In this document: piece after piece, positions 3,900-33,403 of the stretch
Numbering within the stretch: the first letter of the stretch is position 1
How the letters are laid out: the number at the start of each line of letters is the position of its first letter
Origin: Candidatus Daviesbacteria bacterium
GTDB lineage: Bacteria; Patescibacteriota; Microgenomatia; Daviesbacterales; UBA10151
Length of the DNA: 64,000 nt
Assembly: GCA_016176335.1 (NCBI GenBank)
Contig: JACOXI010000003.1
Coordinates: 6,920 to 70,919, forward strand
Direction: 5' to 3'
Translations under genes and position numbers: made by a program
Notes under the pieces: model-generated
Told to the model about the DNA's origin: nothing
Database searches by the model: none
What the model saw: only the letters and a program-made list of their open reading frames with translations

Positions 3900-4145
3900 A
3901 TGAAAAAGAAAAAAAGCCAACGCAGGCTACATCCTCTATTTTTGATATTATTTTTTTTGGTAATGGGTCTTTTGCTGCTAATCTTTTTACGAAGAAGTTT
4001 TGTAACAGAGAAGGAGCAGCAAAAGGTCATAGATATCTCTTTACCGATCATTCCCAAAACAGTTGAGTCTGCTCCAGCAAGCGCCAGTAGCGTCCAAGCC
4101 CCTAAGGCAGTGCCGGTTGAACAATCTTTCGGGAGGGAGTTTTAA
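3900..4145 (+). CDS. Small membrane-anchored protein (single N-terminal TM)
   Basis: The sequence is a 'KKKKSQRR' segment followed by a hydrophobic helix. It lies inside the secreted-protein cluster. Confidence 0.3.
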   Translation: MKKKKSQRRLHPLFLILFFLVMGLLLLIFLRRSFVTEKEQQKVIDISLPIIPKTVESAPASASSVQAPKAVPVEQSFGREF

Positions 4146-4148
4146 GAT

Positions 4149-4604
4149 ATGCGGAAAATAACACCATTTTTAAAGGAAAATCTGTTTCTTTTAGTGGTGA
4201 TTTCGGTACTGGTAGCTTTGAGTACAATTTTTATTATTTGGAACAAGACTGTCTTTTTCTCCACCAAAACCGTGACGCCACCTCAAATTCCTCTGGCAAA
4301 CCCACCAATCCAAACACAAAGCCAGCTGCCTTTGACACCTCTACCACCAGCAGCGGAGGCCAACAAGACAGAAGTTTTTTTGGAAAAAGTGCGTGAGGCT
4401 ATATCTGCAGTTGTATTTAGAGGATTGGGAAAGAGTGTTGAGCCAACCCCTACCCCAGGGGTAAGTTCGCAAGGCAGTCCTACGGCAAATGAAGCAGGAA
4501 GCGTTCCCCTGGGCACAAAACCCTCCCAAGACAGTGTAGATACAGCTTCTACAGCAACTGAACCTAAGAGTGCATTTTCACCAAAGCCTGTGAGAATACC
4601 ATGA
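4149..4604 (+). CDS. Membrane-anchored Pro-rich protein
   Basis: It has an N-terminal TM helix followed by a Pro/Thr/Gln-rich extended region. It is translationally coupled to the downstream gene by an ATGA overlap. Confidence 0.3.
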   Translation: MRKITPFLKENLFLLVVISVLVALSTIFIIWNKTVFFSTKTVTPPQIPLANPPIQTQSQLPLTPLPPAAEANKTEVFLEKVREAISAVVFRGLGKSVEPTPTPGVSSQGSPTANEAGSVPLGTKPSQDSVDTASTATEPKSAFSPKPVRIP

Positions 4605-5902
4605 TGATTTCCAAAAAGTTTCTTCCACTATCACTGGCAATTTTCTTTATTTTGTTCCTGTTTGCTTTATTCGCTTTTCCAAAAAGCAGTCCAGCTTATG
4701 CTGCTGCCCAGTGTGACCCATCTTTTGAGAAAAGCTGTGCCGGCGGTTGTATAGGAGCAAATGATATTTGCTGCGGCAGTGGTTATTGCACATTAGGGAA
4801 TCAGTGCGCCACTATTAACGGCAGGGCAGGTTGTATTCCTACCGGTTCGTCTGTCTGCGGCAACGGTTATTGTGAGCAGGGTTTAAACTGTGTCAGCACT
4901 ACCGCCGGATATCGCTGTGTGGAACCAGGCAGACAGCAATGCGGCAGCGGAAACTATTTTTGTTATGCAGGTAACACTTGTGTTAATGCCAGCATACCTC
5001 TTTGTTGTGGAAGTGGTCAGGTTCAATGCGGAACCGGTTGTGTACCGTCAGGGGTAAGCTGTTGTAATTTGCCTGGGACAAGTTACTATTGCCCTACCCC
5101 AGGTGATGTCTGCACAAATACCAATAATACTGTTGCCGGACTTTCTTGCATACCGCCAGGTTGGACTTCTTGCGGAGGAGGTTATGCTTGCCCGCTTAAC
5201 ACCTCTTGCAGTGGAAGTGGAAACACTGCTACTTGCTACGGATCTTTGGTTTTTCCTGTGCCCGGCAATGGTGAGATGCTTGACCAGCGGCAAGTTGTGT
5301 TTGATGCTGTGTTTGCGGAATCAGCGGACAGCCGTGCTACTGGCCAGACTTTTACACCCGCAGTTACCGGTTATCTAAAAAGAATAGTATTTGCTGTATG
5401 GGACATAAGCGGAAATCCTTCTGGTTTAGGGATACAAATAGTTAAAATCCAAGGTAGCTCATGGATAGGAACAGCAGAGGTGATTTCCAGGGAAATAGTA
5501 AAGAATGTAAGTCAATACAGCTTTGTTCAAGCAGAGTTTGCTGAAGGAGAGAGGCCGTTTTTACAGGCCGGAGGTTATTATGCAGTGGTAATCCGCAGTA
5601 CAGGAGGCAGTGGTTATTACAACTTAGCTATGTACGGCCCACATGCTTCTTCCCAGGGATATACCCGCGGAGACCTTTGTGGGTTTAATCTTAGTGGCAG
5701 CACTCCGACCCAAATTGCGCCTAGCTCTTGCTACGTTGGCGAGTATTTCCAGGTCCGTGATTTGGCCTTTTCAACTTATATGCTCCCTTCAAGAGAAACT
5801 GACTTAGGAGTCGCACCGCCTCCTGCTTTAGACCCCTGGATTCAGACCACCGGCGGGGATGTTCATTCCAATACCGGAATAAATACCCCGGGAGGACCAT
5901 GA
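4601..5902 (+). CDS. Secreted cysteine-rich repeat protein (novel CGxGxxC repeat modules plus a C-terminal globular domain)
   Basis: It has a signal peptide. About 170 aa then carry repeated 'CGSG..C..G..C(V/A)' modules with more than 40 Cys. I recognise no known family. Confidence 0.45.
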   Translation: MMISKKFLPLSLAIFFILFLFALFAFPKSSPAYAAAQCDPSFEKSCAGGCIGANDICCGSGYCTLGNQCATINGRAGCIPTGSSVCGNGYCEQGLNCVSTTAGYRCVEPGRQQCGSGNYFCYAGNTCVNASIPLCCGSGQVQCGTGCVPSGVSCCNLPGTSYYCPTPGDVCTNTNNTVAGLSCIPPGWTSCGGGYACPLNTSCSGSGNTATCYGSLVFPVPGNGEMLDQRQVVFDAVFAESADSRATGQTFTPAVTGYLKRIVFAVWDISGNPSGLGIQIVKIQGSSWIGTAEVISREIVKNVSQYSFVQAEFAEGERPFLQAGGYYAVVIRSTGGSGYYNLAMYGPHASSQGYTRGDLCGFNLSGSTPTQIAPSSCYVGEYFQVRDLAFSTYMLPSRETDLGVAPPPALDPWIQTTGGDVHSNTGINTPGGP

Positions 5903-28849: not shown

Positions 28850-29383
28850 CTATTTTAGCATACCTTGTCTTTTGGCTAATCTTTTCTTGAATAGATTTTC
28901 TCTAAAACCACCTTCCCTCACAAATTTTTCTTCTAACCACCTCAGTTTTTGGTCAAGCAAACGGTTGGTTTGGTTAATGAGGCAGATAATGGCATTAGCT
29001 GCTTGTTCTGGGTTTTCAATATAATTTTTATAATCGTTATAACTATTATAATTGTTATAAACTAAGCTTCTTACTTTTTTAGCCTCTGGGGAATCCTTTT
29101 CCCAAAGTTTTAACCCCCTCTGCCTTAAAAAATCCAAATAATCATTTAAAAGTTCTTCTAAACTTCCCCTTGCTACTCCTAAAAGTTTAATTCTTCCTTC
29201 CAGGCTTTTTTGCAGATAACCTTCAGGAATATTTTGTTTTCCGGATCTGGCAGCCTGTTCCATCTGATCTTTAGTCCTGGATTTATAATCAATGTATCTT
29301 TTAACAAACTCAACAGTGAAGTCATAAATAATCTCAGCTTGTTTGAAGAAAGGAAGAGATTTGTAACCACCGGTTTGATTCAT
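28850..29383 (-). CDS. Four-helix-bundle protein (TIGR02436 family, long form)
   Basis: 'LPFFKQAEIIYDFTVEFVKRY' opens the protein. It has the C-terminal four-helix-bundle suffix region. An N/Y-rich segment comes from a 'ttataa' repeat duplicated upstream. Confidence 0.7.
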   Translation of the reverse strand: MNQTGGYKSLPFFKQAEIIYDFTVEFVKRYIDYKSRTKDQMEQAARSGKQNIPEGYLQKSLEGRIKLLGVARGSLEELLNDYLDFLRQRGLKLWEKDSPEAKKVRSLVYNNYNSYNDYKNYIENPEQAANAIICLINQTNRLLDQKLRWLEEKFVREGGFRENLFKKRLAKRQGMLK

Positions 29384-29424
29384 ATAACCGTTATAATTTT
29401 TATAATTATTATAACTTTTATATT

Positions 29425-31158
29425 CTACTTTCTAAACTGCAGTTTGTACATTTCCATCAGCTCTTTCAGGGTGGTGGCATCTTCGGCCTTCTTGTCTGCT
29501 TCCCTAAATTTGACCAATCTGGGAAAACGCAGGGCCAGACCGGCCGTATGAAGCGGGCTTTTAGTGATCTCATCTGCCAGAACCTCAATCACAATCTTTG
29601 GTTCCACCCACACACTGGGAGTAATCAATGACCTTACTCTGGCTGGTTTACTTTTAACCTTCAACTTCTCACCTTTAACTTTTATCTCTCTCCACTCTTC
29701 ATCTGTCAACCCTGTCCCAATTTTGGAAACTGTTACAAACTCATCTTTGTCCTGATCATAAACTCCCACGAGGAGCGCTCCTGCTCCAAAAGCAGATCTT
29801 TTACCTTTACCAAAAATATATCCTAAAATCACACAATCTATGGTATCTTTTAACTCTCCGTCAGAGTGTCTTTTTAACTTGACCCAGTTAAAATTCCTGG
29901 CCCCTGCCTCATACTTGGAAGTAGGCCTTTTGACAATTAACCCTTCCAAACCCTTAGTCAGTGCGTCATCAAAAAGCTCCTGTATCCTTTCCACTGAATC
30001 TGTGATCTCTCCTGGCTGCGGAATTAAAACTTCGTGTCCCTTAATTCTTGATTCTAACTGCTTGATTCTTACTTTAAGAGGCAAATCCATTAAAGATTGG
30101 TCATCCAAATACATCACATCAAATACAAATGCCTTAAGCGGTAATTTTACAGCCATCTCCTCTATTCCGTACTTACGACGCCTTTTGGTGGTTTCCTGAA
30201 AAGGTAAAAACTCTTCAGACTGCGGATTAAAAGCCAAAGCTTCTGAATCTAAAATTGCAGTTTTTGCCGATACCTGAGATAAAACTCCTTTAATAATATC
30301 CGGAAACATAGGAGTTGTTTCTTCTAAATTTCTGGAAAAAAGTCTGACCTTGCTACCGTCTTTATGAATTTGTACCCTGAACCCATCGAATTTTTGTTGG
30401 ACATGGGCTTTCCCTCCATATTTTTCCAAAATGGTTTTGGCATCAGGTAATCTTTCTGCAAGTTGTGATCTAATTGGCCTTCCCACAGTTACATCCAAAC
30501 CTTGAACTCCCCGAAGTCCCTGACTCCACAAAACCTCCCCAATCAAACCTAAATCAGACACTTTATTATATGCACCTTCCAAAAGCTTTCTTTTACTTTT
30601 ATCACCCAATTTAGACTTGGCAAAAGCATCCATAATAGTGGGATCACCAATTCCTAACCTTGAGGTTCCCAAAGGGATTCGTACCAGGTGTTTGGCAGAA
30701 ACTCCATCCACTTTATTCAAAAGACTAGAAAGAGCTGTAACCTTCTTTTCAACAGCCCCTTCCCCTGTGGTTTTGGCAATTTCTGTTAAAGTTTTAAAGA
30801 CTTCTGCAACTGACAGAGATCCTTCGACTCTCCCTCGACTAGCTCGGGATCGCTCAGGATGGCTCGCAAATTTGCTCGCCACTATCCCCAAATCCCCTAA
30901 CCTCCCATACTCTTTCAGTACTTGCTCACGTTCTACCCCATAAGCCCGGGCCATTGCTTGAGCAACTAATTTTTCGCTCATCCCAATCTCAATTGGTTCA
31001 TAAAAAGGGGCCACCCGTCCTTGCAGTAAATAAACAACCTCCGCTATTTCACGAGACTTTACTTCATCAAAAAGCTTGGACATGATATCAATAAGCGTAA
31101 GGCGGGAAGAGGTTGATTCTAAATTTTCAAAATACTGCGCCAGTTTACCAAATGTCAT
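29425..31158 (-). CDS. lig: ATP-dependent DNA ligase (archaeal/eukaryotic LigI-like)
   Basis: 'KFDGFRVQIH' is the KxDG adenylation motif I. The length and OB/ligase domains fit. It carries an in-frame insert 'ASHPERSRASRGRVEGS'. Confidence 0.9.
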   Translation of the reverse strand: MTFGKLAQYFENLESTSSRLTLIDIMSKLFDEVKSREIAEVVYLLQGRVAPFYEPIEIGMSEKLVAQAMARAYGVEREQVLKEYGRLGDLGIVASKFASHPERSRASRGRVEGSLSVAEVFKTLTEIAKTTGEGAVEKKVTALSSLLNKVDGVSAKHLVRIPLGTSRLGIGDPTIMDAFAKSKLGDKSKRKLLEGAYNKVSDLGLIGEVLWSQGLRGVQGLDVTVGRPIRSQLAERLPDAKTILEKYGGKAHVQQKFDGFRVQIHKDGSKVRLFSRNLEETTPMFPDIIKGVLSQVSAKTAILDSEALAFNPQSEEFLPFQETTKRRRKYGIEEMAVKLPLKAFVFDVMYLDDQSLMDLPLKVRIKQLESRIKGHEVLIPQPGEITDSVERIQELFDDALTKGLEGLIVKRPTSKYEAGARNFNWVKLKRHSDGELKDTIDCVILGYIFGKGKRSAFGAGALLVGVYDQDKDEFVTVSKIGTGLTDEEWREIKVKGEKLKVKSKPARVRSLITPSVWVEPKIVIEVLADEITKSPLHTAGLALRFPRLVKFREADKKAEDATTLKELMEMYKLQFRK

Positions 31159-31180
31159 ATTTGGATTGTAGTAGATTCAG

Positions 31181-31708
31181 ATGATCTTGACAAGCAGAAT
31201 TGCTCTTGTAAAATTACCCTCTATGCTTTATCCTGAGGGAGAGATGGAACAGACACCAAAACAACCTCCCACAGCTGAGGGGCCTAAACTTCCTCAAACT
31301 GAAGAAGAGCTGAATCAAATACTTAATACTGCCCGTAGAGCAGGTGCCATAGCGGCTATTAACTCCATACACGAGGAGATAGCACAAACACTTAGCACTA
31401 ATACAGGATATATGGAACTAATTCAATTGGGGTTAGCTAGGGCTGCTGCAACTGGAGGTTTTACTCGGCAAAACTTTAGACCGATACTTCAGTATCTTGA
31501 GGAAATCTTGAATGCTGGAAAAAAAGAAGTAACAATCCTCTTAAAATATAAACAAGCGGCAGTAGAGGGGAGAATCAATTTTGCTGAAATTGGTAGTGAT
31601 CCACAAAGTAGATTACAGGTTTTGGATATTCATCCCCAGGTTCAACCATCGTCAACAACTCAAGATGTTTCACCAGCGAATCCTAGCTCTCCTTTAACAC
31701 ATAAATAG
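31181..31708 (+). CDS. Hypothetical protein
   Basis: No motifs are recognised. Its 3' end overlaps the first 46-bp direct repeat. Confidence 0.3.
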   Translation: MILTSRIALVKLPSMLYPEGEMEQTPKQPPTAEGPKLPQTEEELNQILNTARRAGAIAAINSIHEEIAQTLSTNTGYMELIQLGLARAAATGGFTRQNFRPILQYLEEILNAGKKEVTILLKYKQAAVEGRINFAEIGSDPQSRLQVLDIHPQVQPSSTTQDVSPANPSSPLTHK

Positions 31709-31738
31709 CTTTTTTGGTGCCGCCGGACTTTTTAACCA
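31693..31738 (+). repeat. 46-bp direct repeat, left copy, flanking the BrnTA cassette
   Basis: It is 45/46 identical to 32331..32376, which encodes the Fic C-terminus. Confidence 0.8.
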
Positions 31739-31739
31739 T

Positions 31740-32063
31740 TTATTTAGGCTTTTGATTTTTTAAATTCTCCTGCAGTTTTTCCATTAACCACATACGGGCT
31801 AAAGTGGAGAGGTTTAAACCCATGCTTCTGGCAAATTTATCCAAACTCTCTTTAACTTGTTTTTGTACTCTTAAAACAATAGCTTCGTCCCTAGGTTTAT
31901 TGAGTTCAAAAATAATGTCTACATCTTTAAACTCATCCCAGTAATCTCCCAAATCATGCGTATCCCACCAGTTTGCTTCTTCTTTGTAAGTCATTTTATT
32001 GAAATCAGGCAATCTGCTTTTTTTCTTTTTCATAAATTTTTCTCCTTTCTTTTTTAGCTGCAT
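31740..32063 (-). CDS. brnA: BrnA-like antitoxin (RHH/CopG-type)
   Basis: It is a small protein downstream of and overlapping a BrnT-like gene. Its C-terminus is RHH-like ('NLSTLARMWLMEKL'). Confidence 0.6.
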   Translation of the reverse strand: MQLKKKGEKFMKKKKSRLPDFNKMTYKEEANWWDTHDLGDYWDEFKDVDIIFELNKPRDEAIVLRVQKQVKESLDKFARSMGLNLSTLARMWLMEKLQENLKNQKPK

Positions 32064-32292
32064 CTCTCGCAGTTACCGGATAATAAATTCCAGTTTCTTT
32101 TCTATTTATAATTACAGTTAAAATTCTTGATCCAACCCTACCAATTATTAAATATCTCCCCTGTTTAGTACCCTCATGAGCTATTACATTTTTAGATACA
32201 TCTTCAATCTCTTGTTGAGAAACATTATGTTTTTTAATATGCTCTCTATTCCACTCATCCCAAATCAGTTTCCTAACAATGATTCTAGTCAT
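32005..32292 (-). CDS. brnT: BrnT-like toxin (DUF497 ribonuclease toxin family)
   Basis: 'KLIWDEWNREHIKKHNVSQQEIEDV...LIIGRVGSRILTVII' matches the BrnT fold signature. Confidence 0.65.
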   Translation of the reverse strand: MTRIIVRKLIWDEWNREHIKKHNVSQQEIEDVSKNVIAHEGTKQGRYLIIGRVGSRILTVIINRKETGIYYPVTARDAAKKERRKIYEKEKKQIA

Positions 32293-32326
32293 TATTGTAT
32301 TACACTATTATACATTTGTCAACTGC

Positions 32327-33403
32327 TTACTTTAACACATAAATCGCTTTTTTGGTGCCGCCGGACTTTTTAACCAAACCCTTTTGACGCAAAAATTTAA
32401 GTTCCCGCAGCACTGTATCATCAGAATGATCCGGGAAAATTTTCCTAAAATCCTTATTGGACATTCCCTTGTGCCTGTGGATATATTCCATAATCATCAT
32501 CTGCCTCTCATTTAAGGCCACCTGCTCCCCCAGCTTATCTTTAATCCTGGCATCAGTGGAAATTCTTTGAACCTTTTCCTTAACTCTGTTTAACTCTATT
32601 GCCACACCCTGGGTAAAATACTCCAGCCAGGGAGTTAAATCCCTCTCATGTGTATCTAGTACAAGCTGGTTTGATACAGCTTGTAATGTTAAGTAATAGT
32701 CCATAGGGTTTTCATCAAAATACTCTTCAAATGAGAAAAATTTTCTAATGTCGTAATTATCCAAAAACATCACCAGTGTGGCAACTGCTCTTGCCACTCT
32801 GCCGTTTCCATCAACAAAAGGGTGAATCCTGGCAATTTCATAATGAATAATTCCTGCTTTAATGACCGGGTGGGTACTTTTTCCCTCATCAGAGTTGATC
32901 CAATTAACCACATCCTCAATTTGATATGGCACCTCAACTGCCGGAGGAGGCGTGTAAGATACTTGTCCGGTTTTGGTATTGCGGATTACTACCTGACGCA
33001 GCCTAAACTTACCGCATGACTCCGGAGGCAAGATTTTGTCTGTTGTCAGCTTGTGAATTTCCAAAATTGTTTCAAGTGTAAAATTATATGCACCGGAAGT
33101 GCCGATTTGGGCTTGCACCGCATCAATAAATTTTAAGACATTTCTGTAATTTATTATCTCCCAAACATCTCTATCCCGGGCAATTACTTCTTGTCCGTCT
33201 AAAACATCCCTAACTTCTTCCTCTGACAGCGGATTTCCTTCAAGATGAGTTCCGTGGTGAACTGTCCGCTCTATGGCCTCTTTTCTAAATTTTGCCTCCC
33301 AGGCAGGTATCAGCGGAGCATTCATAATAACTTCTCTCGCAGCCTCAACAATACCTATGTCTTTGAGGATTTTATTGGTAATTGTATACTTGGGAATAAA
33401 CAT
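32327..33403 (-). CDS. fic: Fic/DOC family protein with C-terminal wHTH
   Basis: 'HPFVDGNGRVARAVATL' is the Fic motif HPFx[DE]GNGR. Confidence 0.85.
   Translation of the reverse strand: MFIPKYTITNKILKDIGIVEAAREVIMNAPLIPAWEAKFRKEAIERTVHHGTHLEGNPLSEEEVRDVLDGQEVIARDRDVWEIINYRNVLKFIDAVQAQIGTSGAYNFTLETILEIHKLTTDKILPPESCGKFRLRQVVIRNTKTGQVSYTPPPAVEVPYQIEDVVNWINSDEGKSTHPVIKAGIIHYEIARIHPFVDGNGRVARAVATLVMFLDNYDIRKFFSFEEYFDENPMDYYLTLQAVSNQLVLDTHERDLTPWLEYFTQGVAIELNRVKEKVQRISTDARIKDKLGEQVALNERQMMIMEYIHRHKGMSNKDFRKIFPDHSDDTVLRELKFLRQKGLVKKSGGTKKAIYVLK
32331..32376 (+). repeat. 46-bp direct repeat, right copy (= 3' end of fic coding sequence)
   Basis: It encodes '...VKKSGGTKKAIYVLK*' of Fic on the minus strand. 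Confidence 0.8.

Follow-up and report, generated by a model that had tools for sequence, protein, structure and literature searches.

A 591-bp brnT–brnA cassette, reaching from its promoter to its stop codon, is inserted two codons before the stop of fic, with duplication of the target, in the 64-kb stretch of Candidatus Daviesbacteria DNA analysed here (the window). The fic gene is now completed by the right copy of the duplicated segment together with a TAA stop borne by the cassette. The left copy represents the fic end as it originally stood, now displaced, and it still terminates a convergent open reading frame.

Insertion at the fic 3' end

Two 47-nt direct copies, identical at 46 of 47 positions, were located by repeat finding at 31692–31738 and 32330–32376, with a start-to-start spacing of 638 nt. 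Their sole mismatch (A at 31707, C at 32345) is synonymous. The original prediction of a 46-bp repeat with 45 matches thus identified a real pair, the left end of which lies one base further out, and the intervening segment measures 591 bp (31739–32329) and not 592 bp. A DNA search allowing up to three mismatches found the 47-mer only at these two places in the window, and none of 100 dinucleotide-preserving shuffles contained a match. In addition, a window-wide search for direct-repeat pairs revealed no repeat-bracketed cassette other than brnTA.

An empty site carrying a single copy of the 47-mer, which had been proposed as the check on the insertion, exists in related genomes. Nine syntenic Daviesbacteria/Patescibacteria arrangements without brnTA were recovered as thirteen contigs, namely the closest relative, L109, plus twelve further contigs with eight distinct arrangements; the set includes L001–L006 and L101–L104, and fic stands beside the ligase gene. 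Positions 1–825 of L109 align to 30913–31738 of the window, and positions 779–1303 align to 32330–32854. By blastn, the part of the window unmatched in L109 is exactly 31739–32329 plus one repeat. Because the same 47 nt of L109 (779–825) match both window copies, the arrangement is an insertion with target duplication, and the predicted integration of a minimal brnTA cassette at the fic 3' end is borne out. At the mismatch, the window allele shared with L109 is that of the left, host-side copy.

The fic gene (32327–33403, minus strand) encodes 358 residues with a Fic domain (Pfam Fic, 79 bits) and the HPFVDGNGRVAR motif. It has 3519 homologues at E ≤ 1e-100, which among the matches listed are 84–91% identical, and exact-sequence look-ups for the window Fic and BrnT gave no match. 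Orthologues in L001–L006 and L109 are syntenic at 76–94% nucleotide identity, and at all related loci examined fic adjoins the ATP-dependent ligase gene. The ligase–fic interval varies across relatives and holds GGDEF genes or various unknown ORFs. Accordingly, the proposed Fic plus BrnTA islet beside the ATP-ligase does not hold: fic is a conserved syntenic host gene, and only brnTA was inserted.

The right copy (32330–32376, minus strand) forms the live last 15 full codons of fic and encodes the Fic residues VKKSGGTKKAIYVLK, in agreement with the predicted C-terminus. The gene now ends in AIYVLK, and its TAA stop (32327–32329) belongs to the inserted DNA. The right copy carries a derived C at 32345, giving the Ala codon GCG; this codon is GCT in the left copy and in the empty-site relatives, except in L001, L101 and L015.

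In both L109 and L002, the single copy is collinear with the left window copy (31692–31738, minus strand). The left copy is followed by GAGAGCTAG, the tail encoding KES and a stop. Within this tail, GAG AGC TAG at 31683–31691 (minus strand) represents the original last two codons (E and S) and stop, now severed from fic; the L109 Fic still ends in AIYVLKES on the same sequence. Together, 31683–31691 and 31692–31739 form an 18-codon mini-ORF (MVKKSGGTKKAIYVLKES and a stop), the ATG of which directly follows the brnA stop. On the plus strand, the convergent ORF takes its last five codons and its TAG stop from the first 17 nt of the left copy, so that this copy, described earlier as a non-coding duplicate, has a coding role besides being the displaced fic end. 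The convergent ORF (ORF154, 31244–31708, plus strand) encodes 154 residues without a Pfam family; its longest open frame begins at 31181, and it has its own promoter-like site at 31187–31214 in the promoter scan. One identical and one 81% identical product are on record. The L109 homologue is 81% identical, has the same C-terminus and overlaps fic by 26 nt. By this comparison, ORF154 already overlapped the 3' end of fic before the insertion.

The brnT–brnA cassette

The inserted cassette (31739–32329, minus strand) consists of TAA, GCAG, a promoter-like site, brnT, brnA and 1 nt. Its GC content is approximately 0.31, compared with approximately 0.40 in the flanks. The sigma-70-like promoter site (32294–32322, minus strand; TTGACA, 17 nt, TACAAT) scored 11 of 12 matches in the promoter scan. 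Two TGTA(T)AATA direct repeats in and beside the promoter spacer are operator-like, and a single nucleotide separates the end of the -10 hexamer from the brnT ATG. Homologous cassettes in other loci keep the same promoter layout at their left edge.

Only two genes lie in the segment, brnT (32005–32292, minus strand), for a 95-residue ribonuclease-type toxin, and brnA (31740–32063, minus strand), for a 107-residue CopG/ribbon-helix-helix antitoxin, as predicted. The two genes overlap by 59 nt in one operon, toxin gene first, and brnA ends 1 nt short of the left repeat copy. BrnA matches Pfam CopG_antitoxin (PF12441) at 43.1 bits against a cut-off of 28, and BrnT matches BrnT_toxin (PF04365) at 35.9 bits against a cut-off of 34.5. 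All residues invariant among 115 BrnT homologues (H18, H22, H39, Y47, R56, Y70, Y71, R76, D77, E82 and R83) are present in the window BrnT. Sequence searches of the PDB with BrnT and BrnA were negative or non-significant (E 0.13 for the BrnT profile search), and the family of BrnT was settled by a fold search. The AlphaFold2 model (pLDDT 90.9) has as its best Foldseek match in the PDB the BrnT structure 3u97 (E 4.3e-5, probability 1.00, target-normalised TM 0.77). The BrnT/BrnA pair of Brucella abortus (PDB 3u97) shares the BrnT fold, the BrnT_toxin and CopG_antitoxin signatures and the toxin-first gene order, but is only 26% identical. Family signatures and the predicted fold thus assign brnTA to the BrnTA family of type II toxin-antitoxin systems. 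The inserted pair would be an ordinary type II addiction module, with BrnT as the predicted ribonuclease and BrnA as the ribbon-helix-helix antitoxin and autorepressor.

The neighbours of the insert are the ligase gene, ORF154, fic and a large carbamoyl-phosphate-synthase-like ORF. Neither the insert nor its immediate neighbours contain a transposase, integrase or other mobility gene, according to the ORF list and Pfam. Terminal inverted repeats in the window cassette and in L058 scored at the shuffle mean, and the cassette has no hairpin, with fold tests no better than shuffles. A DNA transposon or insertion sequence is rejected on the lack of terminal inverted repeats and on the duplication length, 47 nt here and 20–54 nt elsewhere, which is not fixed. 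An integron gene cassette is likewise rejected, the brnA stop being 1 nt from the repeat and an attC-like imperfect palindrome being absent at the cassette 3' end (junction fold z 0.07; the 47-mer folds worse than shuffles). The 47-mer itself lacks both a hairpin and inverted-repeat binding arms. A scan of viral contigs found no BrnT relatives, so that nothing in it points to transport by a phage.

Homologous cassettes at other gene ends

In 68 brnTA loci, the similarity between upstream and downstream flanks was compared with shifted controls from the same locus, and 16 loci exceeded the 99th percentile of these controls. About three quarters of the loci, for example L099, have no clear flanking repeat. 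Where copies exist, the downstream one starts between -4 and +10 nt from the brnA stop, and the upstream one ends just before the -35 box. The cassette is co-oriented with its target gene and packed against it. Cassettes at the fic 3' end occur in the window, L098 and L015, and those at the 3' end of a CoA-ligase/ATP-citrate-lyase-like gene in L007 and L016. Other targets are the 5' end of trmD, the 5' and 3' ends of class I Trp/Tyr-tRNA synthetase genes and the 3' end of a DUF763 gene. The duplication spans 20–54 nt across targets. By eye, the duplicated segments and junctions of different targets have only A-rich starts in common and no convincing core. Between the two options offered by the original prediction, target or att site, a gene-end segment serving as recombination site is favoured, and a fixed att sequence carried to all targets is disfavoured, because the duplicated sequence is a different one where homologous cassettes sit at other genes.

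In all three fic-site cassettes, an in-frame stop directly follows YVLK. Both fic ends of L098 encode KNAVYVLK and a stop, with five synonymous changes between the copies, and across 12 loci, not all of them independent, the codon differences between copies comprise 36 synonymous and 8 other changes. Mini-ORFs starting from an ATG after the brnA stop, such as that in the window, were considered as the reason for synonymous-only differences; L098 lacks this ATG, so this explanation is not general, and an imported orthologue fits better. In L015, two toxin-antitoxin pairs stand after fic, and no separate downstream fic remnant was found for its RHH-PIN pair. The right junction at the CoA-ligase site (ATGAAAATTG) equals the trmD start, a suggestive hint that this site may have been founded from a trmD-site cassette by microhomology.

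The trmD-site cassettes are 99.3–99.6% identical over 567 nt, and the downstream trmD is about 85–94% identical. Upstream of the repeat, L058 and L057 have no detectable homology. Both ends of the near-identical block lie within repeats, the start in the upstream one and the end in the downstream one, and its length approximates the repeat spacing of 636 nt. Host-type and cassette-type sequence switch at nt 18–24 in one repeat of L062 versus nt 30–51 in the other, and at the trmD site the switch points of L057 and L061 would fit a narrow window near nt 30–40. These comparisons indicate that the trmD-site cassettes moved horizontally, and recently, between diverged hosts. For the fic site, a near-identical donor cassette was not found, and the closest BrnT is 81% identical.

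Proposed route of integration and known systems

The transferable unit is probably the cassette plus one gene-end copy, integrating by recombination within the gene end; for the window cassette, this reading is extrapolated from homologous cassettes in relatives. The unit would enter by a reciprocal crossover (Campbell-type or an equivalent ends-in event) between its own gene-end copy and the resident gene end. Such a crossover would duplicate the segment, keep the target gene intact and leave mosaic repeats. The predicted circular form would run from the brnA end through the 47-mer into TAAGCAGTTGACA; neither this form nor a product of excision was observed. Since the cassette encodes no recombinase, the reaction must act in trans, and host homologous recombination after DNA uptake would be the most economical candidate. 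In model bacteria, homologous stretches of about 50 nt recombine inefficiently. The first colonisation of a new gene end would be a rarer, illegitimate event, of the kind termed "insertion with long target duplication". The window copies differ by a single SNP, and the imported gene end is therefore argued from the relatives and not from the window. Furthermore, the L062 switch points do not coincide, so that one clean reciprocal crossover cannot account for all cases; a double crossover replacing a cassette already in place, or gene conversion, would leave similar mosaics.

The alternatives differ in what they make of the repeats. It is rather unlikely, although worth some weight, that the cassette alone was joined into fic de novo by "insertion with long target duplication", with 47 nt duplicated in situ through illegitimate recombination or the repair of a staggered or two-chromatid break, and with the mismatch arising later. 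The 46/47 identity of the copies and the failure to find a donor with the same gene-end allele suit this route, and every new site must in any case have been founded by an event of this kind. Repeat lengths that vary from target to target (20–54 nt), without a motif common to targets, also match those of restriction-modification units (PMC2853133). However, the shared stop after YVLK looks as if a donor's natural fic stop had travelled, the L109 gene being extended by ES, and in situ duplication with neutral decay of a dead copy does not predict copy differences that are overwhelmingly synonymous. At the trmD site, cassettes enter diverged hosts together with part of the repeat.

Site-specific integration by a recombinase of the tyrosine or serine type encoded at another locus, with the 47-mer as att core and the cassette as a non-autonomous, cis-mobilisable (CIME-like) element, is improbable. 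Neither the cassette nor its neighbours encode such an enzyme. The segments duplicated at the fic, CoA-ligase, trmD and tRNA-synthetase genes vary in length and lack an evident core, and the 47-mer has neither inverted-repeat arms nor a hairpin. The repeated use of the same sites would suit a recombinase, and integrases targeting gene 3' ends typically have identity segments of about 47 bp; the narrow switch window of L057 and L061 also fits, but the L062 intervals do not coincide. The left copy reads as a fic 3' end, as it would if a fic–brnTA–fic' tandem duplication had lost all but the last 47 nt of its second fic, and contigs from short reads of the same strain end within the 47-nt repeat, as they might in a chance or assembly artefact. 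Such a relic or artefact is very improbable. The empty sites show the ancestral ORF154 converging directly on fic without brnTA, the left copy is collinear with this ancestral state including its ES and stop tail, and the same architecture occurs at unrelated genes in independently assembled genomes, e.g., L098 with its diverged copies. The shuffles count against chance, and contig breaks are expected where k-mer assemblers meet a true 47-nt repeat. The same strain is present in the Logan runs SRR12113424, SRR12113420, SRR4343430 and SRR12113384.

The closest precedent for the cassette comes from restriction-modification units that underwent "insertion with long target duplication" (Nobusato et al. 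2000, Gene 259:99; Furuta, Abe & Kobayashi 2010, PMC2853133). The repeats of these units often span translation starts or stops, and the Haemophilus influenzae cases include 46-bp repeats overlapping gene 3' ends (PMC2853133). Three of the features by which Nobusato and Furuta recognised such insertions are present here: repeats exceed 30 bp, the relative's single copy at the empty site aligns to both, and the insert and its immediate neighbours are free of mobility genes. Both are addiction-type units without transposase or integrase, with a GC content below that of the genome and with repeats at gene ends. In contrast, the unit here is a toxin-antitoxin pair of type II, and its host lineage belongs to the Candidate Phyla Radiation, with added evidence, from mosaic repeats and synonymous copy differences, that part of the repeat travels. 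A 2013 review ascribed this insertion mode only to restriction-modification units (PMC3874152), and literature searches on toxin-antitoxin cassettes, directed at target duplication or at the Candidate Phyla Radiation, did not yield a description of the pattern.

Three other kinds of element resemble the cassette in part. Prophages e14 and 21 in icd and the islands targeting tRNA or tmRNA genes are integrative elements that bring a replacement gene end, and the CIMEs of Streptococcus thermophilus are integrase-less derivatives of such elements. Gene-end direct repeats, an intact target, a displaced end at the far junction and mainly synonymous differences between element-borne and host copies are shared with them, but the brnTA cassette is only 591 bp and one operon, lacks an integrase and a fixed att common to targets, and uses 5' as well as 3' ends. 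In Neisseria, minimal mobile elements are swapped between conserved flanking genes by transformation and homologous recombination. They too are cassettes without mobility genes that depend on host recombination, and the ligase–fic interval is a similar variable slot; however, they use long flanking-gene arms without target duplication, whereas the homology here is 20–54 nt and is duplicated. Toxin-antitoxin integron cassettes are similarly small, promoter-bearing units, stacked in some genomes, as are the two pairs in L015. Compared with these, the brnTA cassettes have no attC-like palindrome, no integron integrase nearby and repeats that derive from the target.

The spread of chromosomal toxin-antitoxin pairs that are not on plasmids, phages or transposons has been poorly explained, and this locus and its relatives offer an answer for one family. 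The operon itself appears to be the mobile unit, landing in the first or last codons of conserved genes, where the duplicated gene end preserves the target and, in the window, the convergent neighbour as well. Part of the duplicated segment apparently travels between hosts with the cassette, and the mosaic repeats provide a handle on the mechanism. In practical terms, short-read assemblies break at such repeats, and the small pseudo-gene ends left behind are open to mis-annotation. Type II toxin-antitoxin systems, and Candidate Phyla Radiation bacteria as hosts, are thereby added to a mobility mode so far documented for restriction-modification units. More tentatively, the BrnTA cassettes of Microgenomates may constitute a distinct class of minimal mobile element, a promoter-to-stop operon without a recombinase, with a 20–90-nt copy of a conserved host gene's end as its sole "homing arm", repeated insertion in one orientation into the same gene end of diverged hosts and occasional jumps to new ends. 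If so, the long-unexplained "insertion with long target duplication" would become mechanistically tractable.

Organization of the brnTA cassette at the fic 3′ end

A 47-nt sequence occurs in exactly two copies in the 64-kb window, at 31692–31738 (left copy) and 32330–32376 (right copy), which are 46/47 identical with a start-to-start spacing of 638 nt; a match to the 47-mer was obtained in 0/100 dinucleotide-preserving shuffles. The original prediction of a repeat pair around a brnT–brnA toxin–antitoxin pair holds as to its existence, and its dimensions (46 bp, 45/46 identical, 592 bp between) are each corrected by one base, the intervening segment being 591 bp long (31739–32329). The GC content of this segment is ~0.31 versus ~0.40 in the surroundings, and no further cassette-like repeat pair is present in the 64-kb window. 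On the reverse strand, the right copy constitutes the last 15 full codons of fic (33403–32327, −). The fic end is followed by the TAA stop and GCAG, a sigma-70-like site TTGACA-17-TACAAT (32322–32294, −; 11/12 matches in the promoter scan), brnT (32292–32005, −; identified as an ORF and by Pfam), and brnA (32063–31740, −), which overlaps brnT by 59 nt. A single base, the left copy, and GAG AGC TAG lie 3′ of brnA. Neither a mobility gene nor a terminal inverted repeat, hairpin, or attC-like site was found in or at the window cassette, and the defining features tested do not fit a self-encoded site-specific element, a transposon, or an integron cassette.

BrnT scores 35.9 bits against Pfam BrnT_toxin (cut-off 34.5), BrnA scores 43.1 bits against CopG_antitoxin (cut-off 28), and the large protein belongs to the Fic family (Pfam). 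PDB sequence searches with the small proteins gave no significant match. When an AlphaFold2 model of BrnT built on 35 homologues (pLDDT 90.9) was compared with PDB folds, the top hit was Brucella BrnT (3u97; E 4.3e-5, probability 1.00). The window BrnT keeps every residue invariant among homologues, which number 115 and derive nearly all from Daviesbacteria/Microgenomates.

The −10 hexamer TACAAT ends 0–1 nt before the brnT ATG (one base in the window), also at the left edge of most homologous cassettes. Because a −10 element this close to the ATG would ordinarily place the transcription start within brnT, the promoter reading of the site is uncertain; the site may therefore give an antitoxin-biased, antitoxin-only, or leaderless transcript, with BrnT then translated from host-gene read-through. 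In addition, two TGTA(T)AATA direct repeats lie between the −35 and −10 elements (window 32290–32322, −; most homologous cassettes) and look like an operator for the ribbon-helix-helix antitoxin.

Empty sites and the displaced fic end

To find empty sites, representative genomes were searched with a degenerate motif based on the peptide at the Fic C-terminus. Six Daviesbacteria/Patescibacteria loci carry fic between a large ATP-grasp (carbamoyl-phosphate-synthase-like) gene and the ATP-dependent ligase gene (the latter where the contig extends there), each with a single-copy 47-mer homologue and without brnTA; brnTA is likewise missing from the loci of the two nearest Fic relatives (91% and 90% identical in amino-acid sequence). 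In the closest empty-site relative, L109, positions 1–825 align with window 30913–31738 (85%) and positions 779–1303 with window 32330–32854 (94%); therefore, one 47-nt stretch of L109 matches both window copies, and the extra DNA is the 591-bp cassette only. The Fic of L109 ends in AIYVLKES, encoded on sequence found 3′ of the left copy in the window, which places the insertion point two codons upstream of the original fic stop. The window fic now terminates after YVLK on an insert-derived TAA, and the left copy plus GAGAGCTAG represents the displaced original fic end. The core of the original prediction, brnTA integration at the fic 3′ end with duplication of a target that relatives hold as a single-copy empty site, is borne out, L109 being decisive for this insertion with a 47-nt target duplication.

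Two further elements of that prediction require revision. The left copy had been regarded as a non-coding duplicate, but it is not simply that: its first 17 nt carry the final five codons, with the TAG stop, of a convergent ORF (31244–31708, +; 154 aa), which has its own promoter-like site at 31187–31214. The L109 homologue of this ORF (81% identical) adjoins fic and overlaps the fic end by 26 nt. Given this overlap and the ORF end within the left copy, the duplication therefore kept the ends of two overlapping convergent genes. Likewise, a Fic + BrnTA islet had been proposed, but fic does not belong to such an islet; it is conserved beside the ligase gene in every related locus. The ligase–fic interval is, in Daviesbacteria, a variable slot occupied by GGDEF-domain genes or unrelated ORFs of 134–220 aa (L001–L006, L015, L098, L101–L104; window 31159–32326), almost all of which converge on fic, many of them overlapping its 3′ end.

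Several observations accompany this region. All four Logan contigs of the same strain (L105–L108) end inside the left copy, 21–29 nt past the convergent-ORF stop, a pattern consistent with short-read assembly being interrupted by a genuine 47-nt repeat or by population heterogeneity at the site. A CCTTCGACT...CGCTCAGG-like element within the variable insert of the ligase gene (30820–30870) also lies beside brnTA cassettes in L032 and L036 and may be a small dispersed repeat; the insert peptide HPERSRASRGRVEGS is absent from the L003 and L004 ligases. Meanwhile, a four-helix-bundle (23S rRNA IVP-like) gene at 28850–29383 contains 9-nt periodic TATAAYNNT repeats (29020–29059), which recur directly upstream of its ATG (29374–29422); a homologous IVP/bAvd-type gene lies between 28-nt direct repeats at L016 4595–5019 and may represent a further kind of small cassette.

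Recurrent use of gene ends and movement between genomes

Among 68 brnTA loci with usable flanks, comparison of the 160 nt upstream of brnT with the 160 nt downstream of brnA placed 16 above the 99th percentile of same-locus shifted controls, with weaker repeats in several more. The geometry is constant, with the start of the downstream copy at −4 to +10 nt relative to the brnA stop, the end of the upstream copy immediately ahead of the −35 box, and cassette and target gene in the same orientation. Gene ends are used recurrently, namely the fic 3′ end (window, L098, L015; 47 nt in the window), the 3′ end of a CoA-ligase/ATP-citrate-lyase-like gene (L007, L016; 38–42 nt), the trmD 5′ end (several loci; 20–54 nt), the 5′ end (L067, L032; 16–22 nt) and 3′ end (L036; 34 nt) of a class I Trp/Tyr-tRNA-synthetase gene, and the 3′ end of a DUF763 gene (L030; 26 nt). 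L007 shares one genome with an empty fic site (L002). BrnT clusters largely by site, with within-site identities of 77–80% (fic), 88% (CoA-ligase), and 61–99% (trmD); L099, at a different 3′ end without repeats, has a BrnT 77–79% identical to the fic group, an apparent case of at least one site switch.

L015 has no repeat directly after brnA and carries a 33-nt, 85% fic-end remnant ~540 nt downstream. This locus (3948–5810) holds a tandem toxin–antitoxin array 3′ of fic, comprising, in order, brnTA, ~500 nt of apparently non-coding DNA, a second fic-end remnant broken by the hairpin CCTGCCTGCCGGCAAGGCAGG, and an RHH-PIN pair whose promoter is laid out in the same way; insertions appear to have landed repeatedly at the fic 3′ end. 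An ATG overlaps or directly adjoins the stop of brnA (TAAATG, ATGA) in the window (31683–31739, −), L007 (4537–4594), and L016 (4537–4587), though not universally, being absent in L098. At 5′ sites this ATG starts the genuine downstream gene, and at 3′ sites it starts a mini-ORF encoding the C-terminal residues displaced from the target (in the window, MVKKSGGTKKAIYVLKES and a stop). At their right junction, the CoA-ligase-site cassettes (L016 4536–4550, L007 4536–4550) carry ATGAAAATTG, which matches the initial 10 nt of trmD exactly (L058 3529–3540); the host gene has ATCAAAATTG at the junction position. The match hints at founding of this site from a trmD-site cassette via microhomology.

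Four trmD-site cassettes (L058, L061, L057, L062) are 99.3–99.6% identical over 567 nt, and the downstream trmD is only ~85–94% identical. Upstream of the repeat, homology between L058 and L057 is undetectable, and L057 and L062 are only 68–70% identical. In the four-way alignment, near-identity starts within the upstream repeat (~nt 31 of the trmD copy), covers the trmD-like remnant, the promoter, and both genes, and stops within the downstream repeat (~nt 18–30), the outer portions of both repeats being host-specific; the block approximates the repeat spacing (636 nt) in length. Evidently, trmD-site cassettes move between genomes with part of the repeat, in a recent horizontal spread that leaves mosaic repeats. 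This pattern is exactly what would be expected if a unit comprising the cassette and one copy of the repeat recombined once with the gene end already in the host. Some mosaics may instead reflect gene conversion or the replacement of a cassette already in place, since in L062 the switch intervals in the two repeats do not coincide.

Origin of the repeats and relation to known insertions

If the segment had been duplicated in situ and the dead copy had then decayed neutrally, ~40% of the differences would be expected to be synonymous. The comparison of live copies with remnants gave 36 synonymous and 8 non-synonymous codon differences over 12 loci, not all of them independent, a result with a probability of ~2e-8 under such decay. 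The repeat copies instead differ the way orthologues do; in L098, both fic ends encode KNAVYVLK and a stop with five synonymous changes. In the window, the sole difference is synonymous (GCG versus GCT), and the allele common to L109 and most relatives is in the left, host-side copy. Furthermore, in each of the three fic-site cassettes YVLK is followed at once by an in-frame stop, as would be seen if the natural fic stop of a donor had been carried with the cassette; in the closest relative of the window, fic is instead extended by ES. For the window itself, one SNP and the stop-codon context would fit an imported gene end. Under this imported-gene-end model, a reciprocal crossover within the gene-end segment would join the cassette-borne copy and the resident gene. 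The reaction would be performed in trans, with host homologous recombination as the simplest candidate, and rarer illegitimate events would found new sites.

The cassette resembles Neisseria minimal mobile elements, as well as integrase-driven elements that bring a replacement gene end with them. The closest precedent is the "insertion with long target duplication" of restriction-modification units, recognised by comparing genomes of Helicobacter, Haemophilus, and others; its repeats include some of 46 bp that overlap the 3′ ends of genes and some that span starts/stops, and its mechanism has yet to be established (PMC2853133). A 2013 review ascribed this mode solely to restriction-modification units, not to classical toxin–antitoxin pairs (PMC3874152), and the literature searched contained no description of it for toxin–antitoxin cassettes or Candidate Phyla Radiation bacteria. 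The window locus is real and, taken alone, is one more small insertion; together with its relatives, it represents a recurrent, apparently undescribed route by which type II toxin–antitoxin operons colonise the ends of conserved genes.
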